NCBI GenBank assembly: GCA_030264375.1
Contig: JASCQW010000032.1
Location: forward strand, 31,910,986 to 31,970,679
Source: Carcharhinus longimanus
Taxonomy: Eukaryota
DNA: 59,694 bases
Direction: 5' to 3'
A model generated the notes under the pieces. That model saw nothing but the letters and a program-made list of their open reading frames with translations, did not search any database and was not told the origin of the DNA. This document shows, piece after piece, positions 3,825-50,410 of the stretch (the first letter of the stretch is position 1; every line of letters begins with the position of its first letter). A program made the translations under genes and the position numbers.

Positions 3825-3962
3825 ACACTTTTCACTGTCAAACACATAACACATGTGTTTATTCGACTCAGCATCCTTGCAAATAAAAGTAAATATCTTC
3901 TTGTCAGTTTTGTCATCAGCACAGAAAGATATCCGGTGTAATTGGCAATTATGCAGAACTTC
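3825..3962 (-). CDS. GULP1: GULP1 internal coding exon, 138 bp, phase 0/0 ([46 protein letters not shown])
   Basis: Lies within ORF 3738..3986(-), with boundaries cag|GAAGTT...AAGTGT|gtaagt. Contains the PTB-domain signature [16 protein letters not shown]. Confidence 0.97.
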
Positions 3963-15880: not shown

Positions 15881-15979
15881 TTTTGTTTTGGAGTCTAAGA
15901 TTTTGACACCATAGATGGAGATTTGCAGTTCAACCTTGGGAGTCTTCTGACCCTCTGATTTCTTTATGTGCCTTGCAAA
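15881..15979 (-). CDS. GULP1: GULP1 internal coding exon, 99 bp, phase 0/0 ([33 protein letters not shown])
   Basis: T-tract plus tag|TTTGCA...ACAAAA|gtaagt. Near-identical to human [33 protein letters not shown] and in frame with both neighbouring exons. Confidence 0.97.
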
Positions 15980-28069: not shown

Positions 28070-29150
28070 TGTATAGTCAGATTGTGAAGGTCATGATACA
28101 CTGCAATGGTGTGTGAAAGTTTATCCACCGGCGTGGCATGGTAGCACAGCGGTTAGCTTCACAGTGCCTGGGTTTGATTCCTAGCTTGGGTCACTGTATG
28201 TGTGGAGTTTGCACGTTCTTCCCGTGTCTGCATGGGTTTCCTCTGGTGGTCTGGTTTCCTCCCACAGTCTGAGAGACATGATGGTTGGGTGCATTGATCC
28301 AAACAGGTGCCGGACTGTGTTGACTAGGGGAATTTCACAGTAATTTCATTGCAAATACTTACTTGTGACTAATAAATAAACTTTAATGTATTGAGGTAGG
28401 CCGCCTGAGCAGTCCAAGCACCTGAAGTCCATCTTCAGAAGTCCTATGGTCTGCTCTATAAGGGAGTGTGTGGAGTGGTGAGCAGTGCAGTACCTCTCCT
28501 GGGAACGACTCAGAGGACGACGCACCAAAATCATCAGCCAGTGGTTCAGTGGGTACCCCTGATCCCCAAGCAGCCATCCTGTAGACATAGCAATCTCTGG
28601 AAATTGTCAGGCAACTTGGAGTGACTGAGGGTGTGGGAATCATGGCAACTCCCAGAGTACTGCGCACAAATGTGCAATATATGATTCCAGTTATCAGACA
28701 CAAGTTGTACATTGATGGAATGGTAGCCCTAGTGGTTTATAAGCATTGAGAGCTTCTACCATGGAGCCCAGTTTATTGCATCCTGAATTCCTGGGAAGTC
28801 TGAGATGGTGGCGAAGCTGGTGAATCTTGCAGTCTGGCTATCTTCATTCCTAGCAAACCTCTCATATAAATATTGGGCCTTCCTGTAAAGGGCATCTGTG
28901 ATCTCCATTATGTTTTCGTGGGTTGTGGAATGTTGAGATGCTGCACAGATCTCCTGTTGATCTCTGGAAATACCCGTGGCAAAGAAATTTAGCACTGTGG
29001 TTACCTTCAAAACCACTGGCAGGAGAAAGCCTCCAACCCCATCTGCAACAGGTCTTCATGAAGATTGTGGCATACGTGATATACTAGATCTTAAGATAAG
29101 CACAGAACTCCCCGGCACTGCCTCTTATGTATTTGTAAATAGGACCCTTT
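28070..29150 (-). pseudogene. Harbinger (HARBI1-like, DDE_Tnp_4) transposase pseudogene, interrupted by a SINE
   Basis: KVTTVLNFFATG.FQRSTGDLCSIS, ITDALY, FPGIQDAIN, INH*GYHSINVQLVSD, YSGSCHDS, WLLGDQGYPL, HHSTHSLIEQTIGLLKMDFRCLD. Beyond the SINE, IAVYHDLHNL. Contains stops and frameshifts. Confidence 0.9.
28128..28384 (+). mobile_element. tRNA SINE (non-CR1 tail type) inserted in the transposase
   Basis: ggtagcacagcggttagc, gggtttgattcc, tgtggagtttgcacgttct core, and tail ctaggggaatttcacagtaatttcattgc...ttgtgactaataaataaacttt. Confidence 0.88.
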
Positions 29151-30208
29151 TCTATGGGATACCCTAGATCTGGTGATTCACCTCTGTTGTCTAGGTCTGT
29201 CCTCCTGCTCATGTTCTCAATCCCCTTTTCCATGCCTGTTAGGCCAAGAGCTGCGCTCAGTATTGCCTCACCCTCCTTCACCTCCTCCATTGCTTTACGA
29301 CCCTGACACAGGCAGCACTGAGCCCTGGATCCATTTGTGCTTTTGCCTTCATCCTGATATGAAATACTGAATGCATTAAAAGGTCAAGGAAATGAAGCTC
29401 AGAACATGAACCATATGGCAATTAAGGGTATATAAAAAATATGGGCATGCATGGGCATGGAAAATATGCACATTTTGTCCTACCCTATTTACATAGTAAT
29501 CAGCGCAGCCTTGTTTCTGAGACGGTGCACACACACTGAGGTGACCAGGATATATATCAGGAGCTCTCTATGGGATAATAAGGTGCAAATGAGATAAATG
29601 ACCAAACCTGGTACTTCAATCTCTGATGTGGCATTGTAATGGCCAATCAGTTGCTCATGGTCCGCGGGTAGATGTCCTTTGGCCTGTTATGATGCCAAAC
29701 TTGCTGAGCGTGTGATTAGCTTTCATTGACAGAATGTCACATGTGAGGTAGCTGTGCCTCTTTTACTGTTATCTGTATTCTCAAATTCTACATTCCTGTG
29801 TCTTACTCTTGAAATGCAGTGACTGTGATGTGAAGCCACTGAGCTCCGAGTACCTCTTTTAACAGCACAAACGAAGGCATTGGCATTGTGATTTTTCTGC
29901 CTAAGCAGATCTTCTACCTTTCTCACCAAGCTGACTCCTGTTCATTCTGCAGCACCAACAAGTTAGAAGGCACCACCATAAATGGCCTCTCAGCCCTACC
30001 GTGCACACCACCACACTGCCTCAAGACCTCTTCCGATCAAATTCACTGGTACTTTTGATTTGAGCCAATGCCATTACTGCGGTAATTAGACACTCACTCT
30101 CTTACTGTGTGTCAGATATATATCTCGATTCTCAGACCTTTCACCAGTTGTTCTCCAGCTTCTCCTGATAATACTGGATTTGATAGTTGGTGTCGTAGAC
30201 ATCCCTAC

Positions 30209-33230: not shown

Positions 33231-34670
33231 ATTGCCATGGCTGCCCTTCAGTGAAACAGTGCACAGTGGCCATTTGTCTGAAGATCATTCTTAATGTGGG
33301 AAAGTTATCAAGACTGAAACCAATGATGAACCACTTTGCAAGTGTTGTACCAGCTCCAGTTCCCTACAGGTTTTAACTTTTGGCTCTCTCTATGTTGTTA
33401 AGCATTGGAGTGATCAGTCTGATTTAACTCTTTGTCTTAATGACATTGATGACAAGGCAATTTATGATATTTACGAAAATAAATGGCAAGCTGCTGCTGA
33501 TGGGAGAGAAGAATAGTATCAATGGTAAAGCAAAGCAGAGAACTCTAGCAGAGGACTTTTGTTCAATCTGCTGTCCCCATTTTCTGATCAAGAGACCGAA
33601 TTTTTAAATGAGAGATCCTGTACAACTGGAATAATTTGCACTATCTAGAAGACTGACACAGGTGTTACAAAAGGACAGGAGTTGCATCACAAATTCCTAA
33701 TTTTGAAATTCTTTGCAAGGAGCCTGCAGTAAATATTTACAGACATCACATGGGTACTTCCACAATTATGGTACACAATAATCAGACAAAGGGGATCAAA
33801 TGCAAAATCACTAAAACAAACAGACAAGAACTTTATTTGATTCTTCACTCTTATTAAAAGGAAACAGGATAAAGATATTTTTTCAATGGCAACTTTAGAA
33901 AAGTAAAGTGGGAATATAGAACTTGGGAACAGGAGTACGCTCCATCATTCAATAAAGTTAAGGCTGATCTGGTTGTGGTATCAAATCCAGTAAGTTCATA
34001 TGTCATCCATGACCTTTGACTTCCTTGTCTATCAAAAAATTGTTTAATTTTGCCTTGAATAAATTCAATGATTTGGCTGCCACTGCAGTCTGGGGAAGAC
34101 AATTCCACATTAACTGTTGGAATGGTATGGGTTACAGAACAGTGTGTTTTCAAGAAGTCTTTGTAGAATTCCGTCAGTTAATTAACTCTTTATTGACATC
34201 CGAACTATTGACACTCGTACAGTAAAGAATGCTGGTAAAGAGCAATCTCCATGCTTTCATCTTCACTATCTCTGCCAAACACTGAACTCTGGGGTCTGGG
34301 TCATGTGCCTTTGTACATCAGTCTGTGGGTGGTACTCAGAATGTGCCAGACACTTAGATTACATTAACAACAGTCTGAGAGAAAAGAAACTCATCTCATC
34401 TGTCTTAAACAGTAGACCTCTTATCCTTTAACTGTGTCCCCTAGTTTTAGTCTTTCCCACCAATGGAATCATCCTCCTGATATCTACCCTATCAAATCCC
34501 GTCAATATTCTGTATTTTTTTATTCATTCAAGGGATATGGTTTCACTGACTCGGCCAGTATGTGTTGCCCATCCCTAACCGCCTTGAGGAAGTGATGGTG
34601 AGTTGCCTTCTTAAGCTACAGTAAGAGGTCTCACAGCACCAAGATAAAGTCCAACAAGTTTATTTGGTAG

Positions 34671-34705
34671 CACGAGCTTTCAGAGTGCTGCTCCTTCATC
34701 AGGTG
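34671..34705 (-). ncRNA. Minimal type I hammerhead ribozyme motif, core intact
   Basis: CAC CUGAUGA A GGAG-cagca-CUCU GAAA GC UC GUG. Stem I is CAC/GUG, stem II is 4 bp, stem III is palindromic AGCU, and the triplet is CUC. Confidence 0.7.
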
Positions 34706-35409
34706 AGTGTAAGGTTGGATTCACAGAGCATATATAGACACAACCTCAAACAGACCACTGTTCGCAGCAAGCTGCCCAGCCTTCAGGAGAACAGCAACCA
34801 CGATACCACATAACCCTGCCACAGCAACCTCTGCAAGACATGCCAGGTCATCGACATGGATGCCATCATCTCACGTGAGAACACCATCCACCAGGTACAC
34901 GGTACCTGCTCTTGCGACTCGGCCAACGTTGCCTACCTGATGCACTGCAGGAAAGGATGCAGAAATACGGCAGTGGATGAATGGACACCGCTCAACAATC
35001 AGCAGGCAGGAGTATTCCCTTCTTATTGGGGAATACTTCAGCAGTCTAGGGTATTCAGCCTCTGATCTTCAGGTAAGCGTTTTCCAAGACACACCTTCAA
35101 GATACACAACAACGCAGTATTGCCGAGCAGAAACTGATAGCTAAGTTCTGCACACATGAAGACAGCCTCAACTGGGATCTTGGGTTCATATCACACTGTT
35201 ACCATTTGGCCTGGGCTTGAAATATCTTATTAACTATCCTAGCTTGAGACAATTCACACCTCTAATCTGTGCTTAACCCTCTCTCCATTCACATTGACTG
35301 CACCTGTAAAGACTTGATTACCTGTTAAGACTCACATTCCAACCATTATTTTGTAACGGAGTCTGTGTCTATGCATGCCCTTTTTGTGAACCCAACTCTC
35401 CTGATGACT

Positions 35410-35444
35410 CACCAGATGAAGGTGTAGTATTCTGAAAGCTTGTG
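35410..35444 (+). ncRNA. Degenerate hammerhead motif (core CAGAUGA)
   Basis: CAC CAGAUGA AGGUGUAGUAUUCU GAAA GC UU GUG, with U4 mutated. Confidence 0.5.
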
Positions 35445-38400
35445 CTAACAAATAAACCTGCTGGACTTTAACCTGTTGCAGTGAGACTTCTTACTCTGCC
35501 TACCCCACTCCAATGCTGGCATCTCCACATCATCCTTAAACTGCTGCAGTTTGTGTGTTGTAGATGTACCCACAGTGCTGTCAGAGATGGAGTTCTAGGA
35601 ACAGAGAAGGAATGGTGAGATATTTACAAATCAGGATGGTAAGTGGTATGGAGGGAAACTTACAGGTGGTGATGTTCTCATGTATCTGCTACCCTTTTCC
35701 TTCTAGGTGGTAGTGGCTATGGGTTTGGAAGGTACTATCTAAGGAGCCTTGGTGAGTTTCTGCAATGTATCTTGTACATGGTTCACATTGCAATTACTCT
35801 GAGTTGGTGGTGAAGGGAGTGAATGTTTGTGGATGGGGTATTAATCAAGCATGCTGTTTTGTCCTGGATGGTGTCAAACTTCTTGAGTGTTGTTGGAGCT
35901 GCATTTGTCCAGGCAAGTGGATGAATCTTGTAGATGATGGACAGGCTTTGAGGTATCAGGAGGTGAGTTACTCATTGCAGGATTCCTAGCTTCTGACTTG
36001 CTCTTATAGCCACATTATTTATTGCCTCTACTTATTGCTCAAACTGAGCACCAGTGAGCAGGTTTTTGCTAAGGAACTGTCACTAGGTAGTAGTGTTAAT
36101 AGCCTCTTCCTTCACTTTACTGACGACCGACAATAGACTGCTGGGTGGTAACTGCTCTGTTGGATTTGTTATGCTTTTAGTGGACAGAACATTCTTTTGC
36201 AATTTTCTACATTGTAAGATAGATACCAGTATTGCAGCTGTACTGGAACAGCTTGACTCGGGGCATGGCAAGTTCAGAAGTGTAAGTCTTCAGAACTATT
36301 GCTGGAATATTGTCATGGCCCATAGATTTTCAGTATTCAGTATCTTTAGTAATTTCTTCATATTGCGTGAAGTGAATTAAATCGGCTGAAGACTGGGATG
36401 CTGGGGAGCTCCAGAGAAGCCTGAGATGAATCAGCCACTCGGCACTTCTGACTGAAAATTGTTGTGAATGCTTCAGCTTTACCTTTTGCACTGATGTGCT
36501 GGGCTCCTCCATCACTGAGGACAGGAATATTTGTGGAGCCTCGTTCCTCAGTGAGTTGTTTAATTATCCACCACTATTCATGCCTGGATGTGGCAGGGCT
36601 GCAGAGTTTAGATCTGTTCCATTGATTGTCTATCACTTGCTCCATATGTTGGTTAGCACACAAGTAGTCCGATGTTTTAGCTTCGCCAGATTGTCACCTT
36701 ATTTTTAGGTACACCTGGTGTTGCCCCTGGCATATCCTCTTGCACACTTCATTGAACAGGAGATATTTCAACAAGATGACCTCTCATGCTTTTAAACTCT
36801 TATGGGTATAAGCCCAACCTGTCTAACCTCTCTTCATAAGATAGGCTCATCATCCCAGGAGTGAATCAAGTGATTCTTCTCTGAACTTCCTCTCTCAGAA
36901 TTAAATATTCTTTCAAATAAGGAGACCAAAATTGTACTCAATACTCCATATGTGGTTTCACCATAGCCCTGAACAGCTGTGGTGAAACTTCCCTACTTTC
37001 GTATTCTGTACTACTCCAATAAACACCAACATTTAATTTACCTTCCAAATCATTTGCTGTACTTGCATAATAGGTTTTCTGTGATTCATGTACCAGGATA
37101 CCCGGATCCCTCTGTACAACCATGCTCTGTAATCTTTTTCCATTTAAATAGTATACTGCTTTTCTATTCTTCTTGCCAAAGTGGACAAGTTCACATTTTC
37201 CCTTATTATACTCCATTTGCCAGATTTTTTGCCCACTCACCTAACCTTTCCTGGTTCTCTACCTTTGCATTGTAGCTCACATGCTGTATTATATGTAACA
37301 TTCCAAAATCATCTAGTTGTAAAAGTTCTGAAAAGGACAAGAAAACACTACCTCAAAAGGGAAATAAACATCAACCAGGTGAAAGTTCACTTCTTGATGA
37401 CAGTCACTACGTTCTGGAACACTACTTGTGATGACTGTTGCAATAGTCTTCCTAATCGTGTATCCCATGCCAGTTTTGTAACACATCAGGGTTGTTGGCT
37501 ACACTCTGATCACGTTGTTTTTCTAGAAGATTGTTTTTAGTTTCTCGTTTTTAGTGCATTATCTAAATTGCAAAGAAGTTATTTTAAAAGTTACATACTG
37601 GTGTCCATCTCTGATGAAAGCTACAGTGTAATTCAATCATAAAGAGAATATAAGTTTGATATGTGCAATATTCTCTGTTATGTCATTCTAAAAGAGCACT
37701 AATGTCCCTTACTCCAAGTCAATTTTAAACCAAAGCACAAAAATCTCACTAATATTAAAGAACCACTCTCACAATAAAGAACTACAGAAGAGAAAACACA
37801 TCCACAATTCCTTTTTATGCTTATGATGCATCATGTATATAGTAAGTAATACGCTAAATATATTTAAATTTGATATATAAATTGTGCACTGGTTTCATTT
37901 ATATTAGTTTCAATCTTCCTCCCCCATAACTTCTCCTAAAAGTCATCTGTTTTCAATTAGATTGTCATTTTCACAAAATACTTAAAAGACCTTCACAGAA
38001 ACAATGTCAGCACCATTATCAGAAATATGTGCCTGCTGCAAGAGTTAAGCACTCCATCCTTCACTTCAGGATTCCTCAGTCCAGTCAATTTTGTTTTAAC
38101 AATATTGAAAAATTTCTTTGGAATGCTAATAAGCACAGAACATATTTTTATATTGAGGATATTTCTATATAGGATATATGATAGAGGGATAAAGACTTGG
38201 GAAGAGATGTAAAGGGTTAATGTCAGAAATATACATGATGCCGATATAATAACGTCAGATTACATGACTAAAAAGTGAGAAAGAGACCTAGATGGAGGAG
38301 ACACTTCCTAACTTCATGTAAAGGTCCAAATGTGTAAATACTCACTTAAATAAAGAATAATTGTTTTCAGAAATTACTGACGCAACTGACATACTTTGGG

Positions 38401-41535: not shown

Positions 41536-41738
41536 AGCTGAAATCTGAAACAAAAACAGAAAATACTGGAAAATCTCAGCAGATCTGACAGCATCTGTGG
41601 AGAGAGAATAGAGCTAATGTTTCGCGTCTGGGTCGCCCTTAATTAGAGCTGATGAAGGGTCACCCAAACTCAAAGTGTTGGCTTTATTCTCTCTCTGTAG
41701 AAGCTGTCAGACCTGCTGAGATTTTCCAGCATTTTCTG
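41536..41738. mobile_element. Palindromic non-autonomous element made of two inverted PLE terminal repeats
   Basis: cagaaaatactggaaaatctcagcagatctgacagcatctg...gaatagagctaatgtttcg pairs with gttggctttattc...gctgtcagacctgctgagattttccagcattttctg. The centre has overlapping decayed hammerhead cores (CTGATGA at 41649-41655). Confidence 0.75.
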
Positions 41739-44117: not shown

Positions 44118-45551
44118 ATACGCTTAATGCCATTTGACTATATGAAATACTGTAATTCCTTGCTGGTAACTGCTGTCCCATTGGCTGAAACCAACACTGC
44201 TAACAAACCATAGATGGTGAAGGTTTGTCTTACCACTGTTGCAAAATAAGTTGTGGACTTCATTTCGTAGATGTCTAGCCATTTTAGGAGTACATCCACT
44301 ACACTTAGTAACATTATGCCAAAGAATAGGCCTACCAAATCACCCATGGCTGACTTGGCCACTCTCAAGGGTGGCTGATGGTAATTTTTGTTGTACCTGG
44401 CACTGGTTGCACTGTTTAACCATGCTATATCTGCTTCTAACATCATAGCTGCATCATCTTGGACATCCTTCAGTGGATACCATGTAGCTCCTTCAATAAT
44501 AACCTCCTGCCAGGTGTGGGGGCGACCACTCTCACTGCCCACAGAAGGACGTCATCTTCACAACTCGATTCATCCTTCCTGATTTGAAAATGTTTTAGTT
44601 GTTGAGACATTTTATTGTAACGCTAACCATGAAGAACCATATGCTGGACAATATTGTTTCCTTCTGAGTCCACTATTTGATCTGTTGCGATGACACAGAT
44701 AGTGATTTGAGGAAATTCAAGGCAAGGATAATTTTTTTGTAGCACTGGCGGAGAAGGAATTCTTTCTGAAATTGATATTTGCGTTCCCAGTCTGTATTGG
44801 ATGGTATATTCATAGGCAGCCATTAATAAAGCCCAATGCTGTATTCGTGCAGAAGCCATTGGAAGGATGGCTTTATCTTCTCTAAATAAGCCTAGCAGGG
44901 GCTAATGATCAGTAATTACGGTGAACTGTTGTCTATAAACATATTGATGGAATTTTTTTATCCTGAAAGATGATGATCAACCCACCTTTCTCAATCTGTG
45001 AATAAGCCTTTTCTGCATCAGTTAGGGTCCTTGAAACATAGTTGGTCTTTCTAACCCATCCTTCATTTCATGTGATAAAACAGCTTCATTTCCAAAAGGA
45101 GGTGTATCGTAAATAAGAATGATAAGGTCAAAATGGACTAAAAGGCAGGGCGACTGCAGGGCTTGTTTCACTTGAATGAAGGCTTTCTTTTTGCTGTGCC
45201 TTCCAGTACTATCTCTGGTGTTTTATAATAATGCATGTTGAAGTGCCAACATTGTAGACAAATTTTGGAATAAGCCTTCCATAATAATTTACTATTGCAA
45301 GAAAGGATTTTAACTCTCACACCCACTGCTTCTCCTCTCCATCTATCTGCTTTGAAGTAGTATTGCAATAATTCAGTAGTATTGAATCCAATCTTCTGAA
45401 TTAGGGTCAAATAACTCAAGCTTTCCTATTAGAGGCATTATGATAACTCACTAACTGCTGAATAGGTGTGCTTCCAATGATGCGTACACAAGGTGTGCTC
45501 TGCTGCTTCCCGTGGAGAATGGAAAGCACTTCATTAATTTTCCTTGCCAAA

Positions 45552-45938
45552 TTTAATACCCGGAATTTTCCTATCCCACCCACAACAGGAATCATGGCGG
45601 GTGGGGAGGGAATGGGAGGGGTGATGGAGGGCGCGGACCATGCAAAGTTCTGTTGACCTCAGGTGGCATTTTCTGGCTTTGGGGCAAGCACGGCCGGAAA
45701 ATGCCACTCAATATCTTGGAGAAAGTGGTGACCACCAAGTGACTAATGAAAGAATTATTTAATAGGATTAACTATATACACAGAATGAGAAAGATGCTAC
45801 CGATTACTTTGACTCAAGTCTCCAGACAGCCTGAGAGCGCTCATGCTCAGCCCCAGGATTTGTGCGCTTCAGCCTGATTGGCCAAATAGGTCACATGACC
45901 CTCTGAATCCTCATCTCTTAAAGGGCCTTGCTACTATA
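45552..45938 (-). repeat. Gypsy 5' LTR, interrupted by a MITE
   Basis: Homologous to 42714-42940 once 45558-45709 is removed. Adjacent to the PBS-like motif. Confidence 0.8.
45558..45709. mobile_element. 152-bp Harbinger-type MITE with AAT TSD
   Basis: Ends cggaattttcc / ggaaaatgcc. AAT at 45555-45557 and 45710-45712. Removing it restores the LTR end. Confidence 0.7.
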
Positions 45939-46194
45939 AGAGCCATCATCATTAATATTATTCATAAAATAATGTATCTGTGCTTTTTTATTTGTTCCCA
46001 GTCGCAGCTCCCAGTTCTGATTTTCACAGTGCAATCTCAGTAATAGAATTCCACAGCATCATAATGAAAACTAGTCCACTCATAATGGAGCTCTCAAACA
46101 CACAGTTTGTTCACAGAGTGATTGGAAACTCCTTGCCTGTTCAGTTGTAATGCACTATGGGTAAACATGATTCATTCTGTGTAATCATTCATTG

Positions 46195-46970
46195 AGTGTA
46201 ATCTCCACTCAAACTCTGTTCCCTCACTACTGACTCCATTCCTCTTCCTGGCAACTGTCTGAGATGAAGCCAGTCTGTTCACAATCTTGGTGTCACATTG
46301 GGTCCTGATGAGCTTCTGACTTCATATTCAGGCTGTCACTAATGTTATCTATTTCCATTTCCGTAACATCACCCGATTCATACTTCGATTCAGCTCATTT
46401 GTTGCTGAAACCCTTTCTCACATCTTTGTTACCTCTATACTTGCCTATTCCAATTCATTCTTGGCTAGTATTCTGCATTCTAACCCCTGTGAACTTCAGC
46501 TCATCCAAAACCGTGCAGACTGTGTCAGAATTTGCACTAAGTGCTCTTTCCCCATCACCCCTGTGCTGACCTACACTGTCTCCCATTCAGGAAACATTTT
46601 GATTTTAAAAATGATCATCCTTATTTTCTAACCCCTCCCTGGCCTCACCCTTCTATATTTTTGTAAGCCCCTCCAGCCCCACGGGCCTCACAGATATCTG
46701 GCGTTTCAACATCCCTAATGCTAATTGCTCCATTATTGATAGCCATGCTGCCAGTTGCCTAGGTCGAGAACTCTGAAATTCACCCCTACACAATTCTTCC
46801 TCTATTTCATTTTTCTCTTAGACCTCTTAAAAGTTATCTCTCTGATCAAGCATTTAGTCATCTAACATCTAGTCATCTTTATGTAGCTTGGTTTCATATT
46901 TTCTTTTTCAATGTTCCTGTGAGAAGCTCTGGATTATTATTACATTAAAGGCGTTAAAACATTGTTGTTG
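46195..46970 (+). mobile_element. L2 LINE 3' end
   Basis: Remnants VHNLGV, YFHFRNI, FVTSIL.YSNSFLA, LQLIQN, PITPVL.DLH, FDFK. Tail ttcctgtg...tacattaaaggcgt...gttgttg. Confidence 0.8.
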
Positions 46971-47539
46971 ATTACTGCAATGATCTTACTGAAGATGATT
47001 GCATCAGCATAATGTCCTTAGTTGTGGCATAATGATATCCTACACCTAACTGAAGCCTTCCTGTGTGTCTTTATCTTTGACCACTTGACATGCCTGGACT
47101 GTTGCAATAGTGGCCTGGCTCTTATAATCAAACCTCAGGTTGATCTGTCCCATTACTATTCTGGTACTCCTATCTTGAGCATCTCACTTTGTTCCATCCC
47201 TCTCATCTCTCCTCCTTTTTCTCTCACTAAATATCAAGCCTATTTTCTCCTTTAACATCTGTGCTAAGTGACTGCTTAGTGGGATGGGCACAGTAAGAAG
47301 TCCAACTGGTTCATTTGGAATCACGAGCTTTCAGAGCACCGCTCCTTCATCGGGTGAGCGGAGGTTAGTTCACAAATACATATATAAGCAAAGACACAAT
47401 TGCAAGATAATTACAGATTGGAATGTGAAGATCAGTTGGAATGGGAGTCTTTATAGGTAACCAAGTCTTTACAGGTATGAACAGTATGCCTGGAGAGAGG
47501 GATAAACCTGCTAGACTTTAGCCTGGTGTTCTTACTGTG

Positions 47540-47844
47540 ATGTGGGAATGCCGGCGTTGGACTGGCATAAACACAGTAAAAAGTCTGACACCACCAGGTT
47601 TTAGTCCAACCGATTTATTTGATAATACTCACAAGCTTTCGAGGGGACTGCCTCTTCGTCAGGTGAATNNNNNNNNNNNNNNNNNNNNNNNNNNNNNNNN
47701 NNNNNNNNNNNNNNNNNNNNNNNNNNNNNNNNNNNNNNNNNNNNNNNNNNNNNNNNNNNNNNNNNNNNGTCCCCTCGAAAGCTTGTGAGTATTATCAAAT
47801 AAATCGGTTGGACTAAAACCTGGTGTTGTCAGACTTTTTACTGT
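47540..47844. mobile_element. Young Penelope-like insertion with near-identical inverted terminal repeats around an N gap
   Basis: 47573-47648 and 47769-47844 are reverse complements with one mismatch seen. Flanked by TGTTCTTACTGTG at 47527-47539 and 47842-47854. Confidence 0.8.
47627..47668 (-). ncRNA. Minimal type I hammerhead ribozyme, intact core
   Basis: AUUCAC CUGACGA A GAGG-cagucc-CCUC GAAA GC UU GUGAGU. Stem I is 6 bp (one GU), stem II is 4 bp with G10.1-C11.1, stem III is palindromic AAGCUU, and the triplet is CUU. Confidence 0.8.
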
Positions 47845-47859
47845 TCTTACTGTGCCCAC

Positions 47860-48105
47860 TAACCTACAGACCACCCAATTTCTCATCGGTTCCCATACTA
47901 GCTAACATTGTTAATGGTCCTTTTTCAAGATTTGTCCTCTCATTCAAATCTGCCATCATTTTCCTATCATTCCTGGAACTCCATGTTTCAATCCTTCCAA
48001 TAAGGTTTCAGTCCCTGCCACAGCACCAAAACGGCTCTTATCAAAGTCACAAATAACATCCAATATCACTGTGACAAATGCAAACCATCGCTTTTGCTCT
48101 TTTTG
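47860..48105 (+). mobile_element. L2-type RT fragment
   Basis: YRP.NFSSVPILANIV and FQ*GFSP.HSTKTALIKVTNNI (HSTETAL motif). Confidence 0.6.
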
Positions 48106-48109
48106 ATTT

Positions 48110-48238
48110 AAGCTCTGACAAAAAATCATCCAGATTCAAAATGTTAGCTCTATTCTTTCTCTACTGATTCTATCAGAACTGCTGAGATTTTCCAGCATTT
48201 TCTGTTTCAGATTCCAGCATCCACAGTAATTTGCTTTT
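48110..48238 (+). mobile_element. Solo PLE terminal repeat (second family) with CpG-decayed hammerhead
   Basis: agct ctgacaa...atc atcca gatt caaaatgtt agct, then ctgctgagattttccagcattttctgtttcagattccagcatc. Homologous to 41536-41738. Confidence 0.7.
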
Positions 48239-49385
48239 AGATTGACAATAAACTTCATTCGAACTTTTGAAGCTTGTTTTCTGGCTTTTGTACAAATAAT
48301 TTTACAAATATGTAGAAACAACAATACAATGGAAAACACTCCATCAGTGCAGCTGACAATGAATATGCAAACAATGATGGGCAGGAAAAAGCTTTCTCAT
48401 CCATTCAGCCTGATATACAATCATAGAATCTTACATCACAATATACATGCCCACAACCCCTTCCCTCTCCACCTGAAAGCCATGTAATTTCCTATAAGTG
48501 GTAAAGAGTTAGATAAAAATCCAAAACCATTCTGTGGAAACAAGTCTGGAAAATGTGACCATTGATGCAGTCACAGAAATTATGCAACTTGCAGGTCCTA
48601 AGACTGCTCAATCCAAATTCAGGTCACAGATCTGGCCCTTATTAAGAGCTTCTGAGAGAAGTCAAACATAATCCTTAACAAAGGCATTAAAACACAATCC
48701 AATGCATTCCTGTAATTGTGATACCATGAAAGTAGTTAAGGTTTTAAGTTTTAATGAGATGATTTTTTGAATGTTAAAAATTTCAGTTGTTGAGGAAACA
48801 AAGGCTTATTTCAGAATGCCTTATTTTATTACCAGTGTAAAGTATCGAGTGAAGTATAGACTGTTGGTATTGAGTTCACATATGCATACGTCTGTGAAGT
48901 TTCTGACTTGTTCCTTTGCAAGTTGTCAGAGGAATACTAATTCTAGTAAAACTATAATTAATGAAAATAAAACCAATGCACTTAATTTTGTTCATTTTTT
49001 GAACAGTTGGGTTGATTTGAGTCATGAGGAATCAGTCTTTGGAGCATAGAATAAAAAAACAAATAATAAAACTAAACATCTATAGCTAAATTGTTTCACA
49101 GATTTATTGTCCAGTAGAAGGAATCTAACTCTAAATTATTTATTCGAGGATTGCACGCATTGAGCAGCTTAGACATTTTTGCACTGACTTGTAAGGAACC
49201 AATTTGCCCGACTGATATTAATGCAATTTTGCCTTCATGTACCGACCACTAGCAAATTAGGAGCATCTGAAGCTCAGGAAGNNNNNNNNNNTCAGGAAGA
49301 TGTTCCTTTTAACCTCTCCATTGAGAAATGAACTCAAACAAATCCAAAGGGCAATAAAACCAAGTTAAACTTTAAAAACTTGTAC

Positions 49386-49457
49386 CTTGAGTTTACGAAC
49401 CGCATCCTTCACAATTTCAGTACCCTTCGGTTGTTCAACTTCAGCATTGCCAAGAAA
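49386..49457 (-). CDS. GULP1: GULP1 internal coding exon, 72 bp, phase 0/0 ([24 protein letters not shown])
   Basis: The minus strand reads cag|TTTCTTGGC...CTCAAG|gtacaag. The translation matches the GULP1 PTB N-terminal segment [24 protein letters not shown] recalled from human. Confidence 0.96.
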
Positions 49458-49844
49458 CTGAAAGATATAATTGCAAATGTTGAATAAATGTGTGCACAAC
49501 ATTCAGCTTTACATCATCTGGCTACAATGCCAACTGTATAGGGTAATTTAAGATCAAACTGGAATGACACAGGTAGTAAAAGCAACATTGAAAAACAATT
49601 CAGTATTCAGAATAGGGGGCCCAATTGTGAACAGTTAACTTATTTATAAAGTATTAATTAAATATCCAGAACAAAACACCTCAACATAAATATTGCAGTT
49701 AGTTCATCTGTCTACGTACTTAACTTTCCTGAAACAAAGGTGTTTTCTCCAATGACAAGATTTGATAGAAACCAACCTGTCATTCATGTGAATTTCCTCT
49801 TAGCCTTTTGCCCCCTGCCAAATTGCAACACCAAATGTAAAATG

Positions 49845-50410
49845 TGACTGCGCGTTGCTGGCTAGGCCAGTATTTCTTGACCACCCCTAATTGCCCTCAA
49901 GAAGGTGGCGATGAACTGCCTTCTTGAACCACTGCAGTCCATCTGGTGGAGGTATACACATTGTGCTGCTAGGGAGGAAATGCCAAGACTTTGACCCAAT
50001 ACCAGTGAAGGAACACCAATATATTTCCAAGTCAGGATGATGAGTGGCCTGGAGAACAACGTGCAGGTGGTGATGTTTCCATGCATTTGCTATCTGCCCT
50101 TCTGGATGGTGGAGGTCATGGGTTTGGAAGGTGCTGTCTAAACAGCTTTGGTGAGTTCCTGCAGTGCATCTTGTAGAGGGTACACCCTGCTGCCACTGTG
50201 CGTCAATGGTGGAGTGAATGCTTGTGGATGGGGTGCAAATCAAGTGGGCTTCTTGAGGGTTGTTAGAGCTGCACCCATCCAGGCAAGTGGGGAGTATTCC
50301 ATCACATGTCTGACTTGTGTTCTGTAAATGGTGGACAGGCTTTGGGGATTCAGGATATGAGTTACTCACTGCAGAAGTCTTTGCCTCAGACCTGCCCTCA
50401 TAGCCAGAGT
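49845..50410 (-). mobile_element. Second-family LINE 3' end
   Basis: Colinear with 34520-34615 plus 35535-36010. ORF 49887..50369 ends GLQWFKKAVHRHLLEGN. Confidence 0.75.

Follow-up and report, generated by a model that had tools for sequence, protein, structure and literature searches.

The locus analysed here raises the question of whether an apparently intact hammerhead ribozyme, lying in the sense orientation within an intron of GULP1 in Carcharhinus longimanus, could cut the pre-mRNA of its host gene. The original prediction, made from the sequence alone, placed a minimal hammerhead on the minus strand at 47627-47668 of the window (the whole 59,694-nt stretch of DNA that was analysed), assigned it to a young Penelope-like repeat, and proposed that it may still be catalytically competent. 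Inspection of the minus strand confirmed the sequence and every hammerhead element listed for it. Stem I comprises 6 bp (47668-47663 paired with 47632-47627, including one U-G pair), and is followed by the core stretch CUGACGA at 47662-47656, an extra A after A9 at 47655, a stem II of 4 bp with a 6-nt loop (47654-47641), and then GAAA, GC and UU, which comprise the palindrome AGCU and U17. The core bases C3, U4, G5, A6, N7, G8, A9, G12, A13, A14, A15.1, U16.1 and H17 are all present in the type I order, the predicted cut falls between 47633 and 47632, and the identity as a minimal type I hammerhead is supported; the motif is without a closed stem III. The palindrome had been given as AAGCUU, and its conserved part was found to be the 4-nt AGCU, since among 58 family copies position 17 is U 38 times, A 19 times and G once. 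When the 42-mer was folded alone, stem I and stem II formed with probabilities of 0.99 and 0.97, and its folding energy was ordinary (z -1.38; 19 of 200 shuffles were as stable). When the window was scanned on both strands for hammerheads under relaxed criteria, two sites emerged, namely 47627-47668 and a decayed relative at 47321-47357, and an Rfam scan of 45000-50000 gave seven matches up to E 10, none of which was a hammerhead model.

Genome-wide searches showed that the exact 42-mer occurs in 167 copies in the 2.68-Gb genome and that its reversed control occurs in none, and therefore the motif at 47627-47668 is not a chance occurrence. A core-only pattern with a free stem II recovered 12,546 motifs, again against 0 for the reversed control, and a query of 99 bases around the hammerhead gave 1958 genome candidates; the 40 that were scored showed 97-100% identity. 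The proposed youth of the repeat was supported by these near-identical copies, by the 167 exact 42-mers, and by an empty site in relatives. A family sample of 59 copies (loci L032-L156) was gathered by upstream and downstream anchors only, leaving out 30 loci picked by ribozyme similarity and 13 duplicates or extensions; 58 of these copies were parsed, with at most three mismatches allowed per anchor. The extra A between positions 9 and 10.1 was present in 57 of the 58 parsed copies, the 10.1-11.1 pair was G-C in 46 and G-U in 7, and a palindromic 15.2-16.2 (GC) without loop 3 was found in 52.

The hammerhead belongs to a young, 5′-truncated pLTR end of a putative Neptune-type Penelope-like element (47540-47668, minus strand), which consists of the ribozyme, a downstream segment and a long tail stopping just before the ORF start codon. 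Its predicted membership of a Penelope-like terminal repeat was supported by an upstream walk and by relatives carrying RT and GIY-YIG domains. The walk, through copies in the shark's own genome (three further searches), passed about 200 nt of untranslated 3′ UTR and then reached the end of a GIY-YIG domain. At locus L121, the RT, thumb, linker and endonuclease were found in order, frameshifted and with 50-59% identity to the shark protein P0002. The top protein matches came from sharks (Heptranchias, Scyliorhinus), and the best protein relatives carry RVT_1 and PF26215, many of them also GIY-YIG PF01541. A Pfam scan of five broken ORF pieces gave nothing relevant, and the identification rests on the protein relatives and L121. 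The ORF start codon lies directly downstream of the element tail (113 pattern matches), the N-termini of the ORFs downstream of the tail align with the start of a full-length relative, and the ribozyme is located about 95 nt upstream of the element start codon. The exact 42-mer is linked to the RT and GIY-YIG element via overlapping copies; no single locus holding both the exact 42-mer and a full ORF was seen in the assembly, which contains only pieces and broken copies. The linker of the element also contains a CX4CxxC motif, a hallmark of Neptune and Nematis elements (PMC8557442), and the defining feature of the Neptune clade, as set out in PMC8557442, was found in L122, L114, L121 and P0002. 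Neptune and Poseidon are the only types reported in the vertebrates sampled, according to bioRxiv 10.64898/2026.07.22.740005. The linker motif, which is common to Nematis, and the domains together suggest an assignment of the element to the Neptune type.

An older, gap-free copy of the same superfamily, with an inverted terminal piece and a 3′ UTR, was observed at 34618-35532 of the window. Its plus-strand GIY-YIG end at 34742-35196 is 71-78% identical to P0002, and decayed hammerheads lie at about 34667-34707 (minus strand) and about 35408-35448 (plus strand). Elsewhere in the genome, locus L132 (G000:C1:141251599-141254626) holds two same-strand hammerhead units at about 1552 and 1726, 174 nt apart and gap-free, each with a tail and an ORF start; this retrozyme-like tandem is a natural dimer candidate in which both units are decayed.

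As to the host gene, three GULP1 coding exons were located on the minus strand, each flanked by AG and GT. The exon upstream of the host intron (49386-49457) corresponds to residues 31-54 of 6itu_A, a GULP1 PTB structure (E 4.6e-8), and within a further exon at 3825-3962 the stretch 3828-3962 matches residues 88-132 (E 5.6e-25); these two exon matches fix the sense orientation. The exon immediately downstream of the host intron (15881-15979) was placed by position, its 33 codons fitting the gap between residues 54 and 88. A motif search of the next 20 kb gave no further upstream GULP1 exons. The hammerhead is thus intronic and in the sense orientation, as proposed, since the flanking minus-strand exons match the GULP1 PTB structure, and its position is about 1.7 kb past the 5′ splice site, in an intron of 33 kb that separates two successive PTB-domain exons. 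It follows from this gene model that the host intron would be transcribed with the hammerhead included.

The hammerhead further proved to form one of the two arms of a small insertion arranged as a head-to-head inverted pair, the gap and partner arm of which are absent from the original prediction. The middle of the inverted unit is an assembly gap of 100 N (47669-47768), which adjoins the hammerhead arm; beyond it lies the inverted arm with a short tail-less end (47769-47844, plus strand), of which 75 of 76 bases are identical to 47573-47648 in the opposite orientation. Both arms are enclosed by a 13-bp direct repeat, the target-site duplication, with its left copy at 47527-47539 and its right copy at 47842-47854 (both given on the plus strand; the first three bases of the right copy also match the element end). 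The young copy was inserted into the tail of an older Penelope-like fragment (47285-47539), composed of a minus-strand pLTR piece and a short plus-strand tail, which picks up again at about 47855. This fragment carries a decayed hammerhead (47318-47359, minus strand) situated 309 nt downstream on the same strand, in which U4 is changed to C, AGCU is kept and position 17 is C.

In two of four runs (X6 and X7, from related organisms B and C), contigs joined 47526 to 47842, with 71 bases on one side of the joint and more than 200 on the other, and hence represent the empty site. Junction contigs in X1 and X2 reached only 21-23 bases into the arms past the duplication, below the 31-base bridging rule. 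No contig spans the whole inverted stretch and the arms meet only across the N gap, as would be expected if the inverted arm were a scaffolding artefact and the motif a lone truncated copy, still inert as a monomer. We regard such an artefact as very improbable: the target duplication encloses both arms, the empty site joins exactly across them, gap-free inverted units of the same family occur elsewhere (L008, L009, L016, L037, L052 and window 34618-35532), and the inverted arrangement is typical of the class (PMC8557442, PMC3846280). The empty site also bears on the proposal that this copy has been domesticated to regulate the processing of GULP1. Amniotes do have conserved hammerheads within introns (PMC6155905), and the present copy is in the sense orientation 1.7 kb from the 5′ splice site, but the same site is empty in the two related organisms (X6, X7), so that the orthologous intron position is not conserved, which largely refutes domestication; the copy is also identical to 166 others and has no closed stem III. 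Domestication is accordingly an extremely improbable reading.

The inverted form itself is common in the family. In a survey of loci L001-L090 less three duplicates, the 3′ ends fell into two clusters separated by about 38 nt, one long and one short end were combined in 21 of 24 inverted units (p 0.0003 versus an even split), and many inverted units carried 10-14-bp target duplications. Described features of the class include inverted arms, a tail on one side and duplications of 8-10 bp (PMC3846280; PMC8557442), and in a lizard element reverse transcription was shown to start at the two end sites (PMC11167929). We infer that one event may have made the GULP1 insertion, in which reverse transcription begun at the two family-typical 3′ sites would have produced two head-to-head arms, one tailed and one tail-less. 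The occurrence of one long and one short 3′ end per inverted unit would fit priming from both nicks at two start sites.

This anatomy bears directly on whether the copy can cut. In a GULP1-sense transcript, the arm at 47769-47844 is antisense to the 3′ half of the ribozyme and is transcribed first; it is complementary to the 3′ side of stem II, the GAAA, the palindrome, the cut site and the 3′ strand of stem I. The predicted arm duplex has an energy of -136 kcal/mol versus -10 for the ribozyme fold, and the predicted probability of stem I is about 1e-23 with the arm versus 0.23-0.24 without it, in an equilibrium model in which N is treated as unpaired linker and in which editing or proteins could open the duplex. 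The ribozyme is thus predicted to be unable to form in the pre-mRNA. The catalytic competence in GULP1 pre-mRNA that had been proposed was not upheld, as no intact tandem partner was found and the inverted arm is predicted to hold the 3′ half and the cut site in a 76-bp duplex. Since pairing of the cut site with the other, inverted arm of this insertion is predicted, we consider this intact motif, at the truncated end of a recent Penelope-like insertion in the GULP1 intron, likely to be inert, with a probability of roughly 85%. In the pre-mRNA, the antisense arm, being made first, would give a long double-stranded hairpin, keeping the duplexed ribozyme from folding, and splicing would remove the intron as usual. 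In an active element, the motif would instead cut a tandem transcript as a dimer via the AGCU palindrome, or with the help of the element's protein. A single minimal motif is described as giving no detectable cleavage, with dimers and trimers cleaved weakly (PMC4209133), and the Anolis motif was cleaved only with the element's protein, ribozyme cleavage being dispensable for insertion in vitro (PMC11167929).

It is unlikely, given these predictions, that the copy cuts GULP1 pre-mRNA at a low rate, whether through a cis dimer with the older motif, a trans dimer, or help from an element protein. All core bases are intact, the approximately 12,500 core-intact motifs are potential partners, protein-assisted cleavage is reported for the lizard element (PMC11167929), and the older copy keeps AGCU, so that a two-core dimer with all helices can be drawn (-17.6 kcal/mol). 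The older motif 309 nt away is the only same-strand dimer partner seen in the assembled sequence, and the predicted probability of the cis dimer helix is 0.12 without the arm but falls to about 0 with it. Moreover, the drawn dimers are less stable than two monomers (-17.7 versus -20.2 and -17.6 versus -19.0), the core acting on the young copy's site would be the older one, in which U4 is changed, and the Anolis study found no RNA-seq ends at the cut site (PMC11167929). The gap may hide a second sense copy, or a long spacer delaying the pairing of the arm. Among the 30 closest copies, an inverted arm was found in 12, of which 8 cover the cut site, and gaps may hide more. A more specific proposal is that the nested insertion constitutes a two-part ribozyme, in which the young core and the older motif pair via AGCU and cut the intron when the hairpin opens. 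This we consider improbable; if it were true, the empty allele in relatives would be a natural control for the two-part ribozyme, and the inverted arms of the family would act as an inbuilt silencer, allowing host introns to harbour thousands of ribozymes. We thus retain the reading that the 47627-47668 copy is probably an inert passenger in the GULP1 intron.

Copies of the family were compared for signs of selection on the fold. Across pairs 2-4 of stem II, 138 of 171 cells were paired, whereas 10,000 shuffles that ignored relatedness averaged 117 and never exceeded 129. Among the seven haplotypes seen at least twice, 18 of 21 stem II cells were Watson-Crick versus 13.0 expected from shuffling (84 of 10,000 shuffles, relatedness ignored), and a hand-picked alignment of 24 sequences contained two-sided changes in three of the four stem II pairs (20 cells versus 8.0, relatedness likewise ignored). 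Stem I showed no two-sided change in the same 24 sequences. The stem covariation by which the original prediction was to be judged was therefore observed between copies for stem II and not for stem I, and the excess conservation of core bases was not found in young copies: in 36 of them, differences per site amounted to 0.074 in the core, 0.084 in the tail and 0.293 in stem-loop II. In this group (L032-L089), stem-loop II (0.29) and the linker after stem I (0.26) stand out as hypervariable spots versus 0.08 in the tail. Fully intact hammerheads were found in 21 of 58 copies, and the commonest core losses affected G8 (10 copies) and G12 (12 copies), both of which are CpG positions in most subfamilies. 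A core no better conserved than the tail, with losses mostly at CpG positions, is as expected for unselected inserted copies. The comparison suggests that the ribozyme fold is selected in active master elements and decays neutrally after insertion; selection on master copies would explain how stem II can change without losing its pairing, although insertion proceeded without cleavage in the one in-vitro study (PMC11167929). In the cycle of the transposon, the family motif probably has a function.

Several other features of the window were noted. On the minus strand at 47561-47632, a 5′ splice-site-like hexamer follows the cut site; about 71 nt downstream, a pyrimidine-AG immediately precedes the ORF start. 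A 71-nt element intron that uses the cut site as its 5′ splice site as well was unsupported: the acceptor-like pyrimidine-AG is well kept, but no more than 24 of 58 copies have the donor-like hexamer in exact form, the genomic search returned 0 spliced forms, and no splice joint was found in four runs presumed, by guess, to be RNA. At 41557-41738, a 90-bp inverted repeat with 2 nt between its arms, which are 80% complementary, is related to the repeat at 48111-48214. Open frames at 28386-29383 (minus strand) resemble what we take to be a decayed Harbinger-type transposase.

The individual copy carries limited weight, adding one case, out of thousands in this genome, to a class whose description dates from 2014. 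Of use to specialists are the divergence of stem-loop II, about 3.5 times that of the tail within the 36-copy young group, with pairing kept across subfamilies, and the filled and empty alleles, together with copies with or without a masking arm, which offer a ready test of host-RNA cutting by intronic ribozymes.

Comparison with known systems places the motif closest to the min-HHRs of metazoan Penelope-like pLTRs described by Cervera and De la Pena (2014, PMC4209133), which it resembles in its type I topology without loop 3, the extra base between 9 and 10.1, the G10.1-C11.1 pair, the palindromic 15.2-16.2, and the occurrence of thousands of mostly single copies in variable families with compensatory changes. 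It differs in its helices, with 4 bp in helix II and 6 bp in helix I versus 7-8 and 4-5 bp in the Schistosoma min-HHR families described there, and in its host, a cartilaginous fish; the terms 'shark' and 'Callorhinchus' do not occur in two supplementary files of that paper. By title or abstract, no shark report of a minimal Penelope-like hammerhead was found, and preprint supplements may list shark families; one chondrichthyan genome with hammerhead tandem repeats is listed in bioRxiv 10.64898/2026.07.22.740005. A non-LTR retrozyme, as defined in the same preprint, was rejected, the unit being inverted rather than tandem with complete hammerheads. The amniote intronic hammerheads of RECK, CTCL and DTNB (PMC6155905) likewise have a type I motif within a host intron, but they are conserved across species, whereas the shark copy is a young multicopy insertion absent in close relatives. 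With regard to the element, Neptune (Craig et al. 2021, PMC8557442) is alike in its RT and C-terminal GIY-YIG, CX4CxxC linker, 5′ truncation, inverted adjacent copy, 30-40-bp tail confined to one end, and assembly gaps where the inverted copies meet. Anolis Poseidon (Frangieh et al. 2024, PMC11167929) is alike in the two neighbouring 3′ end sites that define the tail and in having its hammerhead where the pLTR meets the ORF. In Anolis the start of the ORF falls within the ribozyme and the ends are inside the ORF, whereas the present ribozyme precedes the start codon by about 95 nt and most ends stop short of that codon. Judged by its sequence, the motif at 47627-47668 has every feature of the minimal Penelope-like hammerheads, and represents a further member of that class in a shark genome, probably inert at this locus.
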